Assembly (NCBI GenBank): GCA_003243955.1
Contig: QHCE01000024.1
Location: 188 to 64,187 of the forward strand
DNA from: Acidimicrobiales bacterium
GTDB lineage: Bacteria; Actinomycetota; Actinomycetes; Mycobacteriales; QHCE01
Reading direction: 5' to 3'
DNA: 64,000 nucleotides
A program made the position numbers and the translations under genes. The notes beneath the pieces were generated by a model. It worked only from the letters and a program-made list of their open reading frames with translations, did not search any database and had not been told where the DNA came from. Positions 29,437 to 45,961 of the stretch are shown here, piece by piece (position 1 is the stretch's first letter; every line of letters starts with the position of its first letter).

Positions 29437-32292
29437 CTATACGGCCGCCACGCCAGGTGCACCGTGGCACTTTTTGTACTTCTTGCCCGACCCGCACGGG
29501 CATGGGGCGTTGCGCGCCGGATCGGCACTAACCCGCTGTGCCGCGACGGCTACCCGAGAGCTCGGACCAGCACCATTACTAAATGACGCACCCGCCGAAC
29601 TGGCATCTCCGTCCAAAGTTGGGGCCGAATACTGCAGATTGGCAGGTTGCCGCGCAGGCGCACCGAGCCCTTTGGCGCGGATCTCCCGGTGCTTGCGGGC
29701 GACCTCAGCAATCTCAGCAACATCAAGCACCCGGGTGGGATCGTCAAGCTCGGCATAGGCTTCGGCAGAGCCAGGTGCCTCTTCTATCTGCACTTCTAGC
29801 TTAAACAGGTACCGAACCGACTCCTCTTTTACGCCCTCTAGCAGCGCGCTAAACAAATCGAACGCCTCACGCTGGTATTCCACCAAGGGGTCCCGCTGAC
29901 CGTAACCCCGCAAAGTGATGCCATCACGCAGATAGTCCATCTCATACAGGTGCGCCCGCCATCTGCGGTCAAGCACCGTGAGCACTACCATGCGCTCAAG
30001 CTCCCGCAGCGCTTCTGGTCCCAGCTCCTTCTCACGCTCGTCATACGCGGCATGGATATCGTCATGCACTTGCTGAAGCAGAAATTCAGCATCTAGCGAC
30101 TCGCGGCCGCCGATGTCGGATTCAACGTCCTGCACAGTAATAGAGATCGGGTACAACTGCTCCAACTGTGTCCACAGCTGATCAAGATTCCAGTCTTCGG
30201 CGTAACGTTCGGCTGTGGCGTTAGTGAGATAGTCGCCAACCACGTCATCAATCATGTTGCGAATCTGGCCCGACAAGTCCGCACCCTGCAGCACTTTGTC
30301 GCGCTCACCGTAGATGAGCATGCGCTGCTTGTTGTCGATCTCGTCGTATTTGAGCACGTTCTTGCGAGTCTCGGCGTTGAGCTGCTCCAACTGTGTCTGA
30401 GCCCCCTGAATCTGACGGCTCACCATCCTTGACTCAATCGGCACGTCATCGGCCATACGCAGACCGTTCATTACTGCCTCGACCGCGCCAGAATTGAACC
30501 TGCGCATCAACTCGTCCTGGAGTGACAAGTAGAAACGAGACTCGCCCGGGTCGCCTTGCCTACCGGAGCGGCCACGCAGCTGGTTGTCGATCCGGCGAGA
30601 ATCGTGCCGTTCCGTGCCTAGTACGTACAGGCCGCCGGCATCCAGAACGTCCCGCTCAGCGGCCTTACGGAGCTGCTTGGCCCGCACCACCGCGGCTTCC
30701 CACTCAGCTTGATAGGTTTCCGGGTCCGTTTCGGAAGTGATTCCACGTTGCCGCAGCTGTCCCGCGGCCGTGTACTCCGGATTACCACCCAGCATGATGT
30801 CGGTACCCCGACCAGCCATGTTGGTTGCCACAGTCACAGCTCGCGGGCTCCCGGCCTGCGCAATGATCTCGGCTTCCTTGGAGTGGTTCTTGGCATTGAG
30901 CACCTCGTGCTTGACGCCGCGGCGGACCAGCATGCTCGAGAGCAGCTCGGACTTCGCCACGCTCGTGGTACCTACAAGCACCGGCTGATCAGCGGCATGG
31001 CGCTCCACGATGTCTTCAACCACCGCGGTAAACTTGGCCTTCTCAGTCTTGTAAATCACGTCCGACTGATCAATACGCACCATTGGCAGATTGGTCGGAA
31101 TCGAAACCACGCCAATGTCGTAGGTCTTTTGGAACTCTGCCGCCTCGGTCATGGCGGTACCGGTCATTCCGGCAAGTTTCTGATAGAGCCGGTAGTAGTT
31201 TTGCAGCGTGATGGTGGCCAGCGTCTGGTTCTCTTCCTTGATTCGGACGCCTTCTTTGGCCTCAATGGCCTGGTGCATACCTTCGTTGAAGCGCCGACCG
31301 GCGAGCACCCGACCGGTGAACTCGTCCACGATGAGTACCTCACCGTCGGTGACTATGTAGTCTTTGTCGCGCTTGAACAGCTCCTTGGCCTTGAGCGCGT
31401 TGTTCATGTAGCTGATCAGCGGCGTGTTAGCGGCTTCATACAGGTTGTCGATGCCCAGCTGGTTCTCCACCTTGGCCACACCTACCTCGGTGATGCCAAT
31501 CATGCGCTTGGCTTCGTCGACTTCGTAGTCGACATCGCGCTTGAGCTTGGGCACCATCCGTGCGAACTCCGTATACCACTTGCCCGACTGTTCCACCGGG
31601 CCGGAGATGATCAGCGGCGTGCGCGCCTCGTCGATGAGGATCGAGTCAACCTCGTCCACAATCGCGAACACATGACCCCGCTGCACCATCTCGCTCTTAG
31701 ACCAGGCCATTTTGTCGCGGAGAAAATCGAACCCGAATTCATTATTCGTGCCGTAAGTGATGTCGCAACTGTATTGGCTCCGACGATGTTCGGGCGGTTC
31801 GTTGGCCAAAATTACGCCGGTCTCCAAGCCCATGAAGCGATGCACCCGCCCCATGGTTTCGGCGTCACGAGCGGCCAGATAATCGTTTACCGTCACAACG
31901 TGCACCCCATCGCCAGACAGTGCGTTGAGGTAAGCGGTCGGAACGCAGGTGAGAGTTTTGCCCTCACCAGTCTTCATCTCGGCGATATTGCCAAAGTGCA
32001 ACGCCGCCGCGCCCATCAGCTGCACGTCATAATGGCGCTGGCCGAGCACGCGGCTGGCGGCCTCTCGAACGGCGGCAAAAGCTTCGGGTAATAGATCGTC
32101 GAGGGTCTCACCATCGCCGTAACGCTGCTTGAACTCATCTGTGAGCGCGCGCAGCTCCGCATCGGTAAAGTCAGCGAACTCATGCTCAAGCTCGTTCACC
32201 GCGTCCGCGATGCCCTTTAAGCGGCGGATGGTGCGACCTTCGCCTATGCGAAGAACCTTTTCCAGAAACACAGCGGATGCCTCTCGTGCCAC
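29437..32292 (-). CDS. secA: Preprotein translocase ATPase SecA
   Basis: 951 aa with MKTGEGKTL Walker A, a [19 protein letters not shown] motif, and a C-terminal zinc motif [17 protein letters not shown] start. Confidence 0.95.
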
Positions 32293-32596: not shown

Positions 32597-33361
32597 CTAG
32601 CTTTCCAGGCTTAGCACGCCGTAGTTGTAGCCCTTACGCCGATATACCACGCTGGGAAGGCTAGTGTCTACGTCGCTGAACAAGTAAAAATCGTGTCCTA
32701 CCAGCTCCATTTCAAAAAGAGCCTGATCAACCGTCATAGGCTTCGCGGTGTGCTCCTTATTCCGCACTACCTGACCCGGAAACGAGTGGTCAACGCCACT
32801 AACCTCCATTTCGGAGCTTCCGTCGTCTTCAAAGCGGAGGCTTTGCAGGCTGTCCCAGCTATCGTTGGCGGCAACTGAGTCACTGTTCTCGATACCCACT
32901 CGCTGCCGAGGCAGCGAAATGACACTGTCCAGATAACCTGGCCCGGCAGCTGCCTGAGCCAAGCTTGCGGTAGCCGCCGACACCGACACCGGTGTACGCC
33001 GACCACGGTGGATACGGCGGCGATCAGCTGCCCGGCGAAGTCTCCCCTCAAGCTTTGCGGCTGCCTTATCGAGCGCGGAATAGAAATCGCCAGCGCATGA
33101 CTCGCTGCGGATTACCGGACCACGGGACCTGCAGGTCAGCTCGATGCGTTGGCACGTATGCGATTGACGAGGATTGGGCTCGTGAAAGAGCTCTACATCT
33201 ACGCGAAACAGCTTGCTGTCGTAACGCATAAGCCGGGCAAGTTTGTCTGCCACGTGCTCGCGATAATGCTCGGGTACCTCGACATTACGTCCGGTGACAG
33301 TGATCTGGACTGGACTGCTTGTATCAGTGATCGCAACTGCTGCGTCGGTGTCAGTGTGCAT
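32597..33361 (-). CDS. hpf: Ribosome hibernation promoting factor (long form)
   Basis: VQITVTGRNVEVPEHYREHVADKL is the N-terminal S30AE domain, with a C-terminal dimerisation domain. GGAGG lies 6 nt upstream of the ATG at 33361. Confidence 0.9.
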   Translation of the reverse strand: MHTDTDAAVAITDTSSPVQITVTGRNVEVPEHYREHVADKLARLMRYDSKLFRVDVELFHEPNPRQSHTCQRIELTCRSRGPVIRSESCAGDFYSALDKAAAKLEGRLRRAADRRRIHRGRRTPVSVSAATASLAQAAAGPGYLDSVISLPRQRVGIENSDSVAANDSWDSLQSLRFEDDGSSEMEVSGVDHSFPGQVVRNKEHTAKPMTVDQALFEMELVGHDFYLFSDVDTSLPSVVYRRKGYNYGVLSLES

Positions 33362-33636
33362 GGCGTACCTCCACAATATTCGCTAACTGCTAGGGCAAAC
33401 CACTGGGCTGAATTCAGGTTGCATACGGGCTACATAGTGTTCTCAGTCCCGGTGGTCAATCGCTATACGTGCTCCCTTCATTGAAGTAAGGAACTACAAC
33501 CCAGCGCTTGCAGCAGCTGGGTTCCGTCACCACAAGATAGCCGAAGATAGGTGGATGATCTAGCACTGACGGTAACGCCTTCAGCAGTCAGAGTCACCCC
33601 TTCGCGCGGGAAATTTTCTACAACACCCGGCAGCTC

Positions 33637-34353
33637 TTAGCTCACCGCCGCCAGCGCTACCGCCCCAACAACGTGGCATCCAAGGCCTCGCAACGTGCCG
33701 GCGGCCTCGGCTAATGTGGCCCCGCTAGTTACGACATCGTCTACTACGAGCACCGAAACCCCGTCCGTCAAAGGTAGCCCGCGACGCGGCACGAATCGGC
33801 CACGAATGTTGCTACGGCGAGCCACAGCACTCAAACCCAGTGAGTCTCTTGCGCCCGGAACAGCCCTCAGCATCGAAGAAACTCCAACAGGCTGCCTCAC
33901 ATGTACGTGGCGCAGTGCCGCGGCTACCAGCGGACGCAGATGATCGCCGCCTCGATGTCGCCGAGCAGCTCGGCTGGACGGAACGGGCACCAACAACACC
34001 CGCTCATTTGCTGGCAAGTTCTGCAAAGCCGCAGATAAACCGATGGCGAGCATGGGTGCAAGCACACAAAGTAATCGCCGCCGGTTGTGCTCCTTGTACG
34101 CCAAGAGCACGCTGCGCAGCACTCCAGCGTAGGCGGATGCGGCGATACACGTAGGAAACCCTGGTGGTGGATGTGCTGGGTGAGCGCGCCGCGGCGCCGC
34201 GCGGCATGCCGACGCACAGCCTAGACACAACAAACCACCTGACCGGCTGCAGGAGACGCAGTATGCGGGCAGCATAAGGTCCGCTGCCACTCTGAGTAGC
34301 TCGGCATTCAAAGCGGCGAAGTTAGACATAGAAAAGCCAGGTGCGCTATTCAT
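33637..34353 (-). CDS. comF: ComF-family phosphoribosyltransferase-like protein
   Basis: N-terminal Cys cluster (CVSCSRSGGLLCLGC) and PRTase motif VLVVDDVVTSGATL. Confidence 0.8.
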   Translation of the reverse strand: MNSAPGFSMSNFAALNAELLRVAADLMLPAYCVSCSRSGGLLCLGCASACRAAPRRAHPAHPPPGFPTCIAASAYAGVLRSVLLAYKEHNRRRLLCVLAPMLAIGLSAALQNLPANERVLLVPVPSSRAARRHRGGDHLRPLVAAALRHVHVRQPVGVSSMLRAVPGARDSLGLSAVARRSNIRGRFVPRRGLPLTDGVSVLVVDDVVTSGATLAEAAGTLRGLGCHVVGAVALAAVS

Positions 34354-34428
34354 AGCAACAGCCTGTCAGCAGGGTACGACAAGGCGCCCGAGTGCGCACC
34401 ATTTTCTCGGTTTAGTCAGTGAGTTCCG

Positions 34429-34599
34429 TTATCGAGCGGGGCTGGTTGAAGTTGCAGGAGTTTTTTCAGGCACCGGTACCGGACCGCTATCATCGGGTAT
34501 GGTTCCGCAGCCAGCAAGCACTGTTAACGCAGCTAACAGCACCACCAGAGCGTACGCGCGGCACAGCGGTTGAGATGCCCGCGCCGCCCATGCCCTCAC
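34429..34599 (-). pseudogene. lpqB: LpqB N-terminal remnant: 56-codon lipoprotein-signal ORF coupled to mtrB
   Basis: Below the track's length cut-off. The GTG at 34599 overlaps the mtrB TGA as GTGA. It reads MRAWAARASQPLCRAYALVVLLAALTVLAGCGTIPDDSGPVPVPEKTPATSTSPAR-stop, with lipobox LAGC, then the comF upstream region follows. Confidence 0.55.
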
Positions 34600-36368
34600 T
34601 GCCGCACTCCCATGCCTCGAGCCGCAGCAGCAGTACCCGACTCATCCACAGTGTCCTCCGCCAGCTCGTCGGGGACTGCGCTTGTGAAATCAACAAAGGT
34701 CAGCATTCCCAGATCCGAGCCTGCTTGAGCTGCGGCAGGCGGCGACTGCGGTAATCCGTCGCTAGACATGACAGCGTCAGGTATCGCGTCCTCAGGCACC
34801 AAAGGTAGCGGGGAACTCTCGAGCACGCCCCCGGCGTGTCGAGGCAGCGTTAAACGGAACTGAGCACCTTGACCTCGCTGGCCCCACGCCTGTAACCACC
34901 CACGATGCAAACGAGTGTCTTCCAACGCAATGGACAGCCCGAGCCCCGTTCCCCCCGTGTGCCGGGCCCGTGATGGGTCCCCGCGCCAAAACCGATGGAA
35001 TACCGCCTCATATTCGTGCGGAGCCAGACCCACACCGTAATCGCGTACGGTGACAGCGACCGCATGCCGATCTGCCATCAGAGTCATCCGAACCACCGGT
35101 TCCTGCCCTATAGAAGTCGGCTCATCAGATGTCGCAACAGCCCGCCCATACTCGACAGCGTTACTGACTAAGTTTGCAATGATGCGCGCCACCCTTCTGG
35201 AGTCGAGCTCACAGACCACCGGATGCGCAGGTGCGTCTAACGCAATACGCACTCCAACACCGCTGGCAAATGCCGATAGCGAGCGTTGAGCCTGCCGAAG
35301 TAGCTCCACTACATCCGTTGGTTCAGGTTCCAGCACGGCAAATCCGCCGTCGTACCGGCTGATCTCCAATAGGTCGGCGAGCAGAGCTTGGAAATGCTCA
35401 ACCTGATCGTGTAAAAGCTCAGCACTACGTGCGACCTCGCCGCGAAACTCCCCACGAGCCCGATGCAGCACATCAGTCGCCATCTGAATTGTGGTCAGCG
35501 GCGTGCGCAATTCATGAGATACATCCGAAGTGAAACGACGCTGTAGGTTGGAGTAGCGCTCCAGCTGCATAATCTGCTGCTGCAGACTTTCGGCCATCTG
35601 ATTGAACGCTCTGCCTAGCCTGGCGACCTCGTCCTCACCATGCACCGGCATGCGCTCGGTGAGGACACCCGCGGAAAGGCGCTCGGCAGTGCGCGCCGCC
35701 GCAGAAACTGGGCGCACCACCATCCGCACCACGCCGAAGGCAATACCACCCAACGCAAGCACCAGTAGGACGCCCACGCCAAAGGTCACATGTCGTACCA
35801 GTGCCACTGAGTCAACCTGACCATCCAGCGGAAAAAAATAGTACAGGTTCACCAACCCCGCCCGGGTTGACACCGGCGCGGCCATAGCAAGCACCGGGCG
35901 CGGCGGCTGACCGCCTAGCTTCATACTCACATACTGGTATCCCAGCACGTTTCGCGCATCCACCAGGGCGGTTAGCTCGGCAGGTGCCTGAAGCTCAGCG
36001 GGGCGGCCATTGGCGACATAGTGTTTTGGTAGTCCCGGATTACCGATCTCCACGGAGACTTCGAACAGCTTGGCCCGTTCACCACGATCTGAGAGGTTTG
36101 CCGTGACTTCCTTGAGCACCGCATCTGCTTTGGTCAGATCTCCGGCGCGCAGCTGCTGCAGGCGCTGCAGAGCGTAACTCCTGCCATCATTAACCTCTTC
36201 GATAGCGTAAGCGCGGTGAAACTGCACCATTCCACGTGAAATCTGCTCCACCATCAATATGCCTAAAACGGCCACGACAGCGCTAGAAATCAGCATAGTA
36301 AAAACCACAGCACGTAGCTGTAGTGATCTGCGCCACAAGCTTAATAGCTGACGCCATGATCTGTTCAC
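34596..36368 (-). CDS. mtrB: Sensor histidine kinase MtrB
   Basis: Two TM helices, a HAMP domain, an H-box FTSDVSHELRTPLT, and N/G boxes. The start is ambiguous: GTG at 36368 (8 nt after the mtrA stop) or ATG at 36467 inside mtrA. Confidence 0.85.
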   Translation of the reverse strand: MNRSWRQLLSLWRRSLQLRAVVFTMLISSAVVAVLGILMVEQISRGMVQFHRAYAIEEVNDGRSYALQRLQQLRAGDLTKADAVLKEVTANLSDRGERAKLFEVSVEIGNPGLPKHYVANGRPAELQAPAELTALVDARNVLGYQYVSMKLGGQPPRPVLAMAAPVSTRAGLVNLYYFFPLDGQVDSVALVRHVTFGVGVLLVLALGGIAFGVVRMVVRPVSAAARTAERLSAGVLTERMPVHGEDEVARLGRAFNQMAESLQQQIMQLERYSNLQRRFTSDVSHELRTPLTTIQMATDVLHRARGEFRGEVARSAELLHDQVEHFQALLADLLEISRYDGGFAVLEPEPTDVVELLRQAQRSLSAFASGVGVRIALDAPAHPVVCELDSRRVARIIANLVSNAVEYGRAVATSDEPTSIGQEPVVRMTLMADRHAVAVTVRDYGVGLAPHEYEAVFHRFWRGDPSRARHTGGTGLGLSIALEDTRLHRGWLQAWGQRGQGAQFRLTLPRHAGGVLESSPLPLVPEDAIPDAVMSSDGLPQSPPAAAQAGSDLGMLTFVDFTSAVPDELAEDTVDESGTAAAARGMGVRQ

Positions 36369-36376
36369 AGTGATGC

Positions 36377-37186
36377 CTAGCTCATCACTACATGGCGTTT
36401 CGCGGTGGCACTGTCTCTGGTGGCACTGTCTCTGGTGGCACTGTCGGTAGTGGCGCTGTCTGAGCAAGGATCCGATACACCTGCTGCCCTGCCCGTCCCC
36501 GCCTTATACCCCACGCCGCGCACGGTAAGCACAACTTGAGGATTTTCTGGATCCCGCTCCACTTTGGAGCGAAGTCGCTGTACATGCACATTGACTAACC
36601 GAGTGTCGGCCGCATGCCGGTAGCCCCATACCTGCTCGAGTAACAACTCCCGAGAAAACACCTGTCGCGGTTTACTGGCCAGCGCAACAAGCAGGTCAAA
36701 CTCTAACGGAGTCAGTGCTAAACGTTCGCCAGACCGGCTCACTTCATGGCCTGCGACATCGATCACAACAGGATCCTCCGGGGCTCCGATCTGGAACCGC
36801 TGAACCACTACCGATTCACGACTGCGCAGCCGAGCGCGAATGCGAGCAACGAGCTCCTTGGGACGAAAAGGTTTGACCACATAATCGTCGGCGCCCGACT
36901 CCAAGCCAAGCACCACATCGATGGTGTCGCTCTTGGCCGTGAGCATCACAATGGGCACACCGGACTCTTCCCGGATCGCTTTGCATACGTCAATGCCACT
37001 CATACCCGGCAGCATCAGGTCCAGTAAAACCAAATCTGGCTTGCTCTCCCGAAAAACTGTAAGCGCACGGTCACCGTTAGTCACAAAAATCGGGGCAAAT
37101 CCTTCGCTCCGAAGCACGATGCCAAGCATTTCCGCCAACGCGGGATCATCGTCGACTACTAAGACTCGCAATGTCATGCATGACAT
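36377..37186 (-). CDS. mtrA: Response regulator MtrA (OmpR family) with an unusual repeat-containing C-terminal tail
   Basis: RVLVVDDDPALAEML...DLMLPGMSG is the receiver domain and VLTVRGVGYKAG ends the wHTH. About 40 extra residues follow, including DSATT/DSATR/DSATR/DSATA. Confidence 0.9.
   Translation of the reverse strand: MSCMTLRVLVVDDDPALAEMLGIVLRSEGFAPIFVTNGDRALTVFRESKPDLVLLDLMLPGMSGIDVCKAIREESGVPIVMLTAKSDTIDVVLGLESGADDYVVKPFRPKELVARIRARLRSRESVVVQRFQIGAPEDPVVIDVAGHEVSRSGERLALTPLEFDLLVALASKPRQVFSRELLLEQVWGYRHAADTRLVNVHVQRLRSKVERDPENPQVVLTVRGVGYKAGTGRAAGVSDPCSDSATTDSATRDSATRDSATAKRHVVMS
36404..36463. repeat. 15-bp tandem repeat, 4 units
   Basis: GGTGGCACTGTCTCT occurs twice perfectly, followed by GGTGGCACTGTCGGT and AGTGGCGCTGTCTGA. 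Confidence 0.95.
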
Positions 37187-37258: not shown

Positions 37259-39235
37259 TTATCGCGGTTCAGGGATAGATGGCGCGACAGAATCAACACT
37301 GACGCTGGCTCTGATCATCTCCATAACTCCGCCTTCGGCCAGGGCAGTGACGTCACCGAGCTCGCGGCGGTCGGCGACGTCACGCAGCAAGCGACGCATA
37401 ATCTTTCCAGAACGAGTCTTGGGTAGCTCGGGAACCACCATGAGCTGTCGCGGTTTGGCAATAGCGCCGATCTGATCGGTCACGTGGCGACGCAGCTGAG
37501 TCAGTAGGACCTGCGCAGCACCGCAATCATGCTCGCCGCGCAGAATAACAAACCCCACAATGCCCTGCCCGGTCAGGCAATCATGAGCGCCGACCACGGC
37601 AGCCTCCGCAACAGCCGGGTGGCTGGCCAAGGCGGACTCCACCTCGGTAGTGGAGATGCGGTGGCCGGATACGTTCATCACATCATCCACGCGCCCCAGC
37701 AGCCACAGATCGCCGTCCTCGTCTTTCTTGGCACCATCTCCCGCAAAGTAATATCCCTGCTCGGCATAGCGCGACCAGTACGTGTCCTGGTACCGCTGCG
37801 CATCACCCCAGATGCCGCGCAGCATGGCAGGCCACGGCTCGGTGAGCGCAAGGTAGCCGCCCTCACCGTAAGACACTGAATTACCAGTCTCATCAACCAC
37901 GTCCGCGCTAATTCCCGGAAGTGCCCGTTGCGCAGACCCCGGTTTTGTGCTGCTCACACCAGGAAGTGGGCTGATCATGATTGCACCGGTTTCAGTCTGC
38001 CACCAGGTATCCACAACCGGGCAACGCCCGCGGCCTACATGTTCCCGATACCACATCCATGCCTCCGGATTAATCGGCTCACCGACCGAGCCCAACACTC
38101 GCAGCGATGACAATTCGTACTGTGCTGGCAGCTGCTCCCCCCAGCGCATAAATGTCCGAATCACCGTCGGCGCGGTATATAAAATGGAGACTCGATACTT
38201 GTCAATGAGCTCCCAGAAGCGGCCTTGATGCGGCGTATCCGGCGCGCCTTCGTACATGACTTGAGTGACCCGATTGCTGAGCGGTCCATACACGATGTAG
38301 CTGTGGCCTGTGATCCAACCGACGTCGGCGGCGCACCAATACACGTCAGTATCGGCCTTGTGATCAAAGACCGCATGATGGGTATAACTCACCTGCGTGA
38401 GGTATCCGCCACTGGTATGCAAAATGCCTTTTGGCTCGGCTGTAGTGCCGGAGGTGTACAAAATAAACAACGGATGTTCAGCGTCAAAAGCCTGCCAGGC
38501 ATGCTCAGCAGATTGGGCGTCCACGAGGTCATGCCACCAAATGTCTCGTCCGGCGCGCCAGAACACATCCTGACCGGTGCGTCGGACCACCAAAATCGTC
38601 TCAATGCCGGTGCCTTCAACGGCTTCATCGGCGATAGCCTTCAGCGCATGGGCGCTCCCGCGCCGGAAACCGCCATCGGCGGTGATCAACACCGCCGCAC
38701 CAGCATCATTGGCTCGGCTACGCAAACTTTGCGCGGAGAAGCCACCGAACACCACGCTGTGCACAGCGCCAATCCGAGCGCACGCCAACATTGAAATCGC
38801 GGCCTCGGGGATCATTGGCAGGTAGATCATGACTCGATCACCTGGATGTACGCCCAGTGACGTCAACGCGTGAGCGGCTTTGCTGACTTCCTGTTGTAGC
38901 TGCGCATAGCTCAGGGAGCGAGTATCGCCGGGCTCACCTTCCCAATGAATTGCTATGTGATCGCCGTATCCGGCTTCCACATGCCGATCCACACAGTTGT
39001 AGGCAACGTTGAGTTTCCCACCGACAAACCACTGCGCAAATGGCGGCTTCCAGATCAACGTCGTATGCCATGGCTGCGACCAACTCAGTCTCCGAGCCTG
39101 CTCCTCCCAAAATCGCAACCGATCTTGCTCAGCTTGGGCGTAGGCAGCTTCGGTGACGTTAGCTGAGGCGGCGAGCTCGGGCGGAGGATTAAAACGACGG
39201 TCCTCATGCAGCAGATTCGACAGTGCAGATTCCAT
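37259..39235 (-). CDS. acs: Acetyl-CoA synthetase
   Basis: 658 aa with YTSGTTAEPKG (AMP-binding), WWQTETG, and a C-terminal SGKIMRR motif. Confidence 0.95.
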   Translation of the reverse strand: MESALSNLLHEDRRFNPPPELAASANVTEAAYAQAEQDRLRFWEEQARRLSWSQPWHTTLIWKPPFAQWFVGGKLNVAYNCVDRHVEAGYGDHIAIHWEGEPGDTRSLSYAQLQQEVSKAAHALTSLGVHPGDRVMIYLPMIPEAAISMLACARIGAVHSVVFGGFSAQSLRSRANDAGAAVLITADGGFRRGSAHALKAIADEAVEGTGIETILVVRRTGQDVFWRAGRDIWWHDLVDAQSAEHAWQAFDAEHPLFILYTSGTTAEPKGILHTSGGYLTQVSYTHHAVFDHKADTDVYWCAADVGWITGHSYIVYGPLSNRVTQVMYEGAPDTPHQGRFWELIDKYRVSILYTAPTVIRTFMRWGEQLPAQYELSSLRVLGSVGEPINPEAWMWYREHVGRGRCPVVDTWWQTETGAIMISPLPGVSSTKPGSAQRALPGISADVVDETGNSVSYGEGGYLALTEPWPAMLRGIWGDAQRYQDTYWSRYAEQGYYFAGDGAKKDEDGDLWLLGRVDDVMNVSGHRISTTEVESALASHPAVAEAAVVGAHDCLTGQGIVGFVILRGEHDCGAAQVLLTQLRRHVTDQIGAIAKPRQLMVVPELPKTRSGKIMRRLLRDVADRRELGDVTALAEGGVMEMIRASVSVDSVAPSIPEPR

Positions 39236-39239
39236 AGGG

Positions 39240-39715
39240 CGCCGCCTTTATCCTTTATTTTATAGGGAAATATCGCGATTAAGCTCGACATCTCTCGCAC
39301 TAAGCGATCAGAAACGTTGTAGTAGAACTCTGGATGCTCTGGCGGCACAGCGGTCGGGCAGACCACGACCCGCGCCCCATACGCCTGCAACACGCCGATT
39401 TTGTCCGCGGAGACCTTGTCTGGACAAACGAACACGCACTCGTAACCTCGCTGCTGGGCCAACAAGGCCAACCCACTCGATATTGGGCTCGACAATAGTT
39501 CCACCGAGTTGCAGCGACCCGTCTTGCTCGGCGGCGTCTATCATGCGCTGGGCTATGCGATCCTTCACCGAGCCACCGGGGTTGAGGTATTCCAGCTTGG
39601 CCAGCACCAGCGGACTACTGCGAGGGTTTTCCTGCGTACCGGTTGTGAGCACTGATCGCAGCGCAACCATGGGGGTATCGCCGATGAGGTCCACGACAGA
39701 GTCCACATAACGCAC
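39240..39715 (-). pseudogene. Cysteine synthase / cystathionine beta-synthase pseudogene (frameshifted, 3'-truncated)
   Basis: Two overlapping ORFs in different frames. The first reads LIGDTPMVAL...AKLEYLNPGGSVKDRIAQRMI...GGTIVEP. The second reads GLALLAQQRGYECVFVCPDKVSADKIGVLQAYGARVVVCP. The sequence ends about halfway through, where acs begins. Confidence 0.7.
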
Positions 39716-45876: not shown

Positions 45877-45961
45877 TGCCCAGGACGGGATTCGAACCCG
45901 TACGCCCCTTCCGGAGCAGCCATTTTTAAGACGGCCGTGTCTGCCATTCCACCACCCGGGC
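45877..45961 (-). tRNA. tRNA-Leu (anticodon TAA)
   Basis: GCCCGGGTGGTGGAATGGCAGACACGGCCGTCTTAAAAATGGCTGCTCCGGAAGGGGCGTACGGGTTCGAATCCCGTCCTGGGCA. It has a 7-bp acceptor stem, a long variable arm, a GTTCGAATC T-loop, and anticodon loop CT-TAA-AA. Confidence 0.9.

Follow-up and report, generated by a model that had tools for sequence, protein, structure and literature searches.

A 56-codon lipoprotein gene retained from the 5' end of lpqB downstream of mtrB in an uncultured actinobacterial clade

In the window (the whole 64-kb stretch of DNA analysed here), the gene that directly follows mtrB is an open reading frame of only 56 codons, which by its sequence is the retained 5' end of lpqB; the full gene encodes a lipoprotein of ~580 residues, the partner of the MtrAB cell-division sensor. 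Substitution patterns within a clade of related lineages show that this short ORF (hereafter the stub) is a protein-coding gene under purifying selection and not a decaying pseudogene. We favour, with a probability of about 60%, the reading that an ancestral deletion in lpqB left a selected lipopeptide of 26-56 residues, which carries the LpqB N-terminal motif and probably acts on the sensor of MtrB.

The MtrAB-LpqB system is almost universal in actinobacteria. Mycobacterium tuberculosis depends on it as an essential system, and in that species both cell division and intrinsic drug resistance are under its control. The mtrAB-lpqB cluster is described, in a passage of PMC2991359 that cites Hoskisson and Hutchings 2006, as conserved throughout the sequenced actinobacteria, with Tropheryma whipplei as the one exception. 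Statements in PMC3353115 (citing Nguyen et al. 2010) and PMC12818412 report that LpqB binds the extracellular domain of MtrB and modulates the phosphorylation of MtrA in mycobacteria; the second of these, a 2026 paper, calls LpqB a 'likely periplasmic modulator'. A literature search for loss or truncation of lpqB yielded, within the literature searchable, no report of lpqB reduced to a lipopeptide N-terminus, and within that literature the stub is a new variant of the system. The sequence examined comprised the window and contigs of 1.2-22 kb from its relatives, all of the genomes being MAGs or metagenome contigs.

Organisation of the locus

The features of the region are listed below in the order of their coordinates in the window.

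29437-32292, minus strand: secA
32597-33376, minus strand: hpf
33637-34353, minus strand: gene for a ComF-family phosphoribosyltransferase (Pfam Pribosyltran), which follows lpqB in lpqB-bearing relatives
34354-34428, minus strand: 75-nt spacer from the stop of the stub to the start of comF (from the sequence; comF ATG at 34353)
34429-34599, minus strand: 56-codon ORF plus TAA, the mini-lipoprotein gene and retained lpqB 5' end (from the sequence and the ORF list)
34429-34455, minus strand: variable Thr/Ser/Pro-rich tail (ATSTSPAR) and TAA stop; tails differ among lineages
34456-34509, minus strand: Cys31 (predicted to be lipidated) and conserved mature motif CGTIPDDSGPVPVPEKTP, counterpart of the N-terminal tether motif of LpqB
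34510-34599, minus strand: lipoprotein signal peptide, codons 1-30, with an Arg-rich n-region, the h-region ALVVLLAALTVL and the lipobox L-A-G before Cys31
34611-34607, minus strand: Shine-Dalgarno sequence GGGAG of the stub, inside the 3' end of mtrB and 7 nt 5' of the GTG
34419-34754, plus strand: antisense ORF of 111 aa overlapping the stub (from the ORF list)
34596-36368, minus strand: mtrB, sensor histidine kinase (Pfam HAMP, HisKA and HATPase_c)
36377-37186, minus strand: mtrA, response regulator, 269 aa as called in same-species MAGs (Pfam Response_reg and Trans_reg_C)
37259-39235, minus strand: acs
39289-39715: PALP/CBS remnant, another truncated gene near the stub in the same species

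The likely start of mtrB is the GTG at 36368, as indicated by the gene call in L002 (a same-species MAG) and by the sequence, and the longest ORF has 623 aa; the extracytoplasmic sensor domain of MtrB sits between TM1 and TM2. The GTG start of the stub (34599-34597) shares bases with the TGA of mtrB (34598-34596), the two together reading GTGA (34596-34599). The product, M/V-RAWAARASQPLCRAYALVVLLAALTVLAGCGTIPDDSGPVPVPEKTPATSTSPAR, passes a PROSITE-type lipoprotein rule and, written with its signal peptide cut, consists of MRAWAARASQPLCRAYALVVLLAALTVLAGC followed by GTIPDDSGPVPVPEKTPATSTSPAR. Two Arg residues lie within its first seven, the h-region has a mean Kyte-Doolittle value of 2.7, and the sequence rule predicts a PS51257-type lipobox (LAGC) at Cys31. 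The frame ends at mature residue 26, and the stub region is identical in four same-species assemblies; contigs of this species were located through the acs gene. Gene callers left the ORF uncalled in the window's own species.

Pfam detected no domain in the 56-aa product, including LpqB_N (PF25976), GerMN/Germane (PF10646) and the Gmad1 beta-propeller (PF10647). The spacer at 34354-34428 holds no lpqB remnant, no terminator-like site, no promoter consensus and no Rfam match, and Rfam, terminator and promoter-consensus searches of the region returned nothing that accounts for it.

An earlier sequence-only reading had given 34354-34599 as the interval of the stub. That interval does hold the ORF, which alone occupies 34429-34599, the remainder being spacer. 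The other structural claims of that reading agree with what was found: the GTG at 34599 overlapping the mtrB stop is seen in the sequence, the signal peptide with its lipobox conforms to the PROSITE pattern, the 56 codons end exactly 75 nt before comF, and Pfam supports the identities proposed for mtrA, mtrB and comF, beyond which HPF and SecA are encoded.

Relationship to LpqB and distribution of the short gene

The N-termini of 18 full-length LpqBs, and nothing else of these proteins, went into an HMM that was searched against 2085 stop-to-stop segments from the window and five related loci. The window ORF scored E = 2.3e-11 and the five orthologous stubs 6e-9 to 1e-5, the next-best segment being at 0.3. 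With full LpqBs as tblastn queries, the stub was the single match in the window and in each related locus, aligned to LpqB residues ~4-37. A phmmer comparison of the 56-aa product with 1.84e9 representative proteins returned as true matches only the stubs of L013 (E = 6e-5) and L005 (E = 7e-4); matches to P0142 and P0143 were dropped on inspection as spurious repeat proteins. A word-indexed protein search with the 56-aa product found no homologues because the query is too short.

The mature N-termini of the stubs read CG[TGSR]IPDD[SG][GEA]PVPV and those of the outgroup LpqBs C[GSA]GVPDSG[DPE]PV[AVP][VI]P. In a longer alignment the patterns become [AS]GC-G-x-I-P-D-D-[GS]-[EGA]-P-V-P-V-[PHK]-x-[KR] for the stubs and AGC-[SGA]-G-V-P-D-S-G-[DPE]-P-V-[AVP]-[VI]-P-N-[RK]-K for the outgroups, and the tether motif of LpqB that corresponds to positions 34456-34509 is C-x-G-V-P-D-S-G-x-P-V-x-V-P-N-R/K-K. 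Homology between the two ends near mature residue 16-18. The likeness to full-length LpqB thus comprises the slot after mtrB and before comF, the overlap with mtrB, the kind of lipoprotein signal peptide and the mature motif C-x-G-[VI]-P-D-x-G-x-P-V-x-V, whereas everything past about mature residue 17 is absent, i.e., some 540 residues with the LpqB_N (PF25976), GerMN (PF10646) and Gmad1 (PF10647) domains. Since it shares position, signal peptide and N-terminal motif with LpqB but has none of the three domains, the stub is a truncated LpqB orthologue and not a full member of the family.

Full-length genes are found in the same slot outside the clade. L017, L018 and L024 (MtrB 54-56% identical) have an lpqB of 577-593 aa directly 3' of mtrB with LpqB_N, Germane and Gmad1 on record, and L006 (a Nanopelagicales MAG, MtrB 41% identical) likewise has lpqB directly after mtrB, which brings the outgroup range to 559-593 aa; L025 probably also belongs to the lpqB-bearing outgroups. 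Where contigs reach past lpqB (L006, L017, L018), a gene in the comF position and then hpf follow. The full-length gene overlaps the mtrB stop in three outgroups, as measured in L006 and L018 and as given by gene coordinates in L024, whose upstream GDSL-lipase and PALP genes are also common to the clade of the window. Between the stop codon of mtrB and the start of comF lie 1735-1995 nt in L006, L017 and L018, as compared with 242 nt in the window and 186-715 nt in the four clade loci for which this interval was computed. Remnants of lpqB were sought in the spacers of the clade, including the extra 129-aa ORF of L015 and the 579-nt spacer of L005, and none were found.

The identity of MtrB to that of the window falls from 100% (same species) through 77, 77, 77, 72 and 68% and then drops to 56% or less. 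In all lineages with an MtrB identity of at least 68% the body of lpqB is absent and a short ORF lies at the mtrB stop. The stub occurs in six species-level lineages, represented by the window, L005, L013, L016/L022, L015/L023 and L014, of which five have it intact and one frameshifted; at least ten assemblies, independent of one another and made from different samples, show the architecture. Outside the window's species the stubs are as follows.

L005: 89-91 aa
L013: 63 aa, called as a gene
L016 and L022: 75 aa
L015 and its close relative L023: 88 aa
L014: frameshifted

The mature peptide measures 26-56 aa across the intact lineages, with tails that vary in length and sequence. L022 and L023 are the genuine loci among five returned by a metagenome scan with a degenerate stub motif; L019, L020 and L021 were rejected as chance matches inside unrelated genes, and no full-length LpqB with the exact stub motif was present among the loci found.

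The stub of L014 has an intact motif (GCATIPDDGGPVPVKD), but its frame lacks a start codon past the TAG of mtrB, and an ATG (7604) located 35 nt 5' of the mtrB stop is out of frame with it. The pattern resembles a frameshift of 1 nt within the signal peptide, due either to recent inactivation or to an assembly error; unless it is the latter, the stub gene would be dispensable or dead in one lineage.

The six MtrBs of the clade were monophyletic in 100 of 100 neighbor-joining bootstrap replicates with 33 outgroup MtrBs. Because the clade is monophyletic and nested among lpqB-bearing lineages (L017, L018, L024, L006 and probably L025), the short-ORF state is derived, and a single deletion of lpqB in the ancestor of the clade would be the most parsimonious history.

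These comparisons also bear on what the sequence-only reading had said of the origin of the ORF. The resemblance it noted between the mature segment and the N-terminus of LpqB is borne out by the HMM and by the alignment, and its absence of about 1.6 kb of lpqB from the locus by the outgroup genes in the same slot. Of the two options it offered, a missing lpqB or a lineage that makes only a mini-lipoprotein, the latter fares better, given six lineages and purifying selection on the ORF. It had proposed that the spacer between mtrB and comF be compared with relatives and had held that a full-length lpqB elsewhere in the genome, together with a short ORF present in all relatives as an ancestral state, would count against its reading; the six lineages do share the stub, but the state is derived and not ancestral, so its presence in relatives does not refute the reading.

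Constraint on the retained segment and alternative explanations

The tests of selection cover six lineages and short blocks. Within the clade mtrB has reached saturation at synonymous sites (pS 0.50-0.77, with pN 0.07-0.24), and the C-terminal tails of MtrB and the noncoding spacers are unalignable between lineages. A block of 16 codons in the stub (G-C-...-PVPV-xx, with the conserved pattern GC-G-x-IPDDGEPVPV-xx) has a pN of 0.07-0.24, a dN/dS of 0.08-0.31 and a pS of 0.35-0.85, so that the constraint on the motif is about equal to that on MtrB itself. Variable columns number 3, 5 and 14 at codon positions 1, 2 and 3, respectively (16 columns each; 14/16 at third positions vs 8/32 at the others, Fisher p = 5e-5). 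Across the whole ORF, L015 and L023 differ in 27 of 88 codons, 20 of the differences being synonymous and 7 nonsynonymous. The h-region changes freely in sequence (dN/dS 0.6-1.4) with its hydrophobicity kept, and the tail beyond mature residue ~+18 is unconserved between distant lineages. A start codon, a purine-rich Shine-Dalgarno-like sequence and a valid lipobox are kept in all five intact lineages, together with an overlap of 4-14 nt between the stub and the stop of mtrB; the lipobox is also valid in L023. Codon position 2 of the antisense ORF at 34419-34754 is where the variable sites fall, which rules this ORF out as the conserved frame.

No other part of full-length LpqB is as conserved as the segment that remains in the clade. 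Pairwise identity in C18-K35 is 0.76 as compared with 0.50 in the globular body among nine close sequences, and 0.49 as compared with 0.30 among all 17. For the nearest full-length LpqB, AlphaFold2 run on a 17-sequence alignment gave a model (mean pLDDT 85.8, pTM 0.83) whose confident globular fold sets in near residue 45; residues 1-43 (signal peptide and early mature region) stay below 50 in pLDDT and form no secondary structure. A search for a solved LpqB structure found none. The retained segment is thus predicted to be a disordered tether. Maximal conservation together with predicted disorder suggests that it most likely serves as a short linear motif for contact with a partner.

A corresponding signal is seen in MtrB. 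Among the clade members, the identity of the sensor domain stands to that of the cytoplasmic core in a ratio of 0.91, vs 0.60-0.71 in outgroup pairs of similar divergence. Judged by this ratio, the clade conserves its sensor domain to an unusual degree, and the domain is not a relaxed loop that has lost its ligand.

It is unlikely that the lipopeptide serves a partner other than MtrB, be it as a sorting or recognition signal (in lipoprotein maturation, glycosylation or septal localisation) or through another divisome protein. A conserved and predicted disordered motif would suit such a role, and MtrB is reported in complex with TapA, Wag31, FtsI and other septal proteins (PMC12818412). Wherever the gene is intact, however, its translation has stayed coupled to that of mtrB, the constraint on the sensor domain of MtrB points the same way, and a maturation signal without cargo would give no reason to retain the gene.

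We also give little credence to the stub being a non-functional remnant, i.e., the 5' end of a deleted lpqB that has yet to decay. Several observations are of the kind expected from such a remnant: the frameshift in the signal-peptide region of L014, the variable tails, the lack of a gene call in the window's species, and the nearby PALP/CBS remnant of the same species (39289-39715), which indicates that deletional decay is active here. With synonymous divergence in mtrB reaching 0.77, however, neutral sequence should no longer be alignable, as is the case for the spacers and the MtrB tails. The low dN/dS of the motif, the third-position periodicity and the excess of synonymous over nonsynonymous differences between L015 and L023 likewise contradict neutral decay, as do the start codon, Shine-Dalgarno sequence, overlap and lipobox kept in five of the six lineages. 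Ordinary remnants of 5' deletions resemble the stub in their origin by a large deletion, the PALP/CBS remnant being an example nearby, but evolve neutrally, whereas the stub combines the low dN/dS and codon periodicity with a start, a Shine-Dalgarno sequence and a lipobox kept clade-wide.

About equally improbable is a role in cis only, in which translation of the stub would serve termination-reinitiation for the expression of mtrB and comF or the stability of the mRNA, the signal peptide and first residues being kept for harmless processing of a by-product. Such a role needs no specific amino acids, and yet 12-16 mature residues are conserved, the same ones that are most strongly kept in full LpqBs. 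The conserved start/stop overlap with mtrB and the conserved Shine-Dalgarno sequence would fit it, as would the absence of a terminator between the stub and comF and, in L016, an overlap of 38 nt between the stub and the comF start; across the clade, however, the gap between stub and comF ranges from -38 to +456 nt, and coupling to comF is therefore not conserved.

A full-length lpqB elsewhere in these genomes, moved there by translocation or duplication and leaving the stub as a scar at the old site, is very unlikely. Coverage extends to the 64-kb window and to the 1.2-22 kb contigs of relatives, which leaves room for a second copy, but LpqB-like segments other than the stub were found neither in the window nor in the clade loci. 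None of the 21 matches to the nearest full-length LpqB in a search of 5.8e9 proteins, itself of limited sensitivity, could be traced to the clade, and a scar would not show purifying selection.

A chance ORF or an assembly artefact is hardly conceivable: the ORF is short, open frames are common in GC-rich DNA and the 111-aa antisense ORF overlaps it, but the same architecture recurs in the independent assemblies, the HMM and phmmer matches are highly significant, and the variable sites at antisense codon position 2 show that the antisense frame is not the conserved one.

Proposed mechanism and significance

The reading that we prefer, a selected lipopeptide acting on MtrB, starts from an origin that the comparison with relatives shows: some 1.5-1.7 kb of lpqB was deleted in the common ancestor of an uncultured Mycobacteriales-type actinobacterial clade. 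The deletion removed the LpqB_N, GerMN and beta-propeller domains and left the start codon overlapping mtrB, the Shine-Dalgarno sequence, the lipobox signal peptide and the first ~16-18 mature residues. By analogy with established lipoprotein biology, translation of the stub would be coupled to that of mtrB, the product would be exported by Sec, Cys31 would be lipidated by Lgt, and the signal peptide would be cut by LspA. In the window's species the result would be a membrane-anchored lipopeptide of 26 residues, CGTIPDDSGPVPVPEKTPATSTSPAR. The weakest step is the last, in which the motif may contact the extracytoplasmic sensor domain of MtrB, so that the clade would keep a minimal LpqB that still modulates MtrB. 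MtrB is the most plausible partner because LpqB is reported to bind its sensor domain, the gene stays coupled to mtrB, and the sensor stays conserved.

Small membrane-anchored modulators of sensor kinases include MgrB and SafA, which act on PhoQ in enterobacteria, and the lipoproteins LprF and LprJ, which act on KdpD in M. tuberculosis. As tiny membrane-tethered peptides acting on a histidine kinase these may offer a functional analogy to the stub, with no sequence relationship. The clade and Tropheryma whipplei both depart from the near-universal mtrA-mtrB-lpqB arrangement. T. whipplei, however, is reported to be without the cluster, whereas the present clade has an intact mtrA and mtrB, both under constraint, and only the body of lpqB has been lost, its N-terminus remaining under selection.

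The occurrence of the stub also illustrates that lipoprotein genes of fewer than 60 codons are missed by gene callers, as happened in its own species. For the biology of LpqB, the clade points to a specific segment, the lipid anchor and the first ~17 residues, which is the most conserved part of the protein and is predicted to be disordered. As the 56-codon gene is still under selection, this segment probably does a job on its own. A further-reaching proposal is put forward only tentatively, and we are inclined to doubt it more than to accept it: the lipidated, disordered first ~17 residues of LpqB (C-x-G-[VI]-P-D-x-G-x-P-V-x-V-P) may themselves engage the MtrB sensor, with the clade as a natural minimal LpqB. 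If this is true, the lipopeptide alone would suffice for a selectable function, and the globular body of LpqB, the ~540 residues of GerMN and beta-propeller, would be a dispensable accessory input module that can be lost.

Taxonomic placement and RNA genes

The same-species metagenome-assembled genome (MAG) whose MtrB is designated P0001 carries the NCBI label 'Acidimicrobiales bacterium', and its closest relative is labelled Mycobacteriales. The MtrB sequence of the window's species clusters with Cryptosporangium, Micromonosporaceae and Jatrophihabitans-type sequences; the submitter's assignment to Acidimicrobiales is probably wrong. Regarding RNA genes, the sole Rfam match at the gathering threshold in the 64-kb window was one tRNA gene.

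Window 45877-45961, minus strand: tRNA gene (Rfam match)

Variable and conserved parts of MtrA and MtrB

Window 36404-36461, minus strand: 15-nt tandem repeat at the 3' end of mtrA (3.9 copies, 88% matches)
Window about 35800-36240: MtrB extracytoplasmic sensor domain (residues 20-165 of P0001)
Window 34596-34800: MtrB C-terminal tail, with equivalents in L005, L013 and L014

The 15-nt tandem repeat encodes the C-terminal tail of MtrA, a pentapeptide repeat of the SDSAT(T/R) type (ending in SDSATTDSATRDSATRDSATAKRHVVMS before the stop codon), and is followed by the mtrA TAG (36377-36379) and then by the mtrB GTG (36368). Sequence comparison showed that the pentapeptide repeat is absent from the MtrA tail of the relative L005. 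Within the stub clade, i.e., the six lineages that retain only a short 5' end of lpqB (the stub; 56 codons in the window), the sensor domain of MtrB is as well conserved as its cytoplasmic core (identity ratio 0.91); in pairs of lpqB-bearing outgroup loci of similar divergence, the sensor domain is far less conserved than the core (ratio 0.60-0.71). C-terminal to the HATPase domain, MtrB of the window, L005, L013 and L014 has a tail about 30-65 residues long, which is acidic in the window and wholly dissimilar in sequence from one clade member to another, whereas the conserved stub motif (the C-G-x-IPDD-type mature N-terminus) lies only a few dozen bases downstream.

The stub and its surroundings in L014 and L015

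L014 7604-7809: stub orthologue
L015 2249-2638: additional called ORF (129 aa) between the stub and comF

The stub orthologue of L014 is without an in-frame start codon and lies 3' of the TAG that ends mtrB, in frame with that gene. An ATG at L014 7604 would provide the n-region of the stub (beginning MTELDGRATIRSRPAATDHPLRKLA) and is in a different frame, which points to a 1-nt frameshift within the stub signal peptide. The MtrB tail of L014 also contains a stretch 'AGIPDDDDG' similar to the stub motif, which could be a local duplication or a chance resemblance. The 129-aa ORF between the stub and comF was found in the L015 lineage only, where it extends the mtrB-comF distance to 715 nt; it yielded no Pfam match and showed no similarity to LpqB.

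Genes upstream of mtrA

Window 39289-39715, minus strand: remnant of a PALP/CBS-domain gene, upstream of acs
Window 37259-39235: acs

In all clade loci that reach upstream of mtrA (window species, L013, L014), acs separates the PALP gene from mtrA; the nearest outgroup, L024, has no acs at that position, its gene order being GDSL lipase, PALP, mtrA. The acs of L013 is represented by two calls (481 and 133 aa), a split which may reflect a frameshift. The intact PALP/CBS-domain gene encodes 457-458 aa in L014 and L024. The window remnant, annotated as a 128-aa gene in same-species MAGs, covers residues 1-140 only, across two frames and with 63-75% identity to L014. It is a second truncated gene of the stub neighbourhood and suggests ongoing deletional decay.
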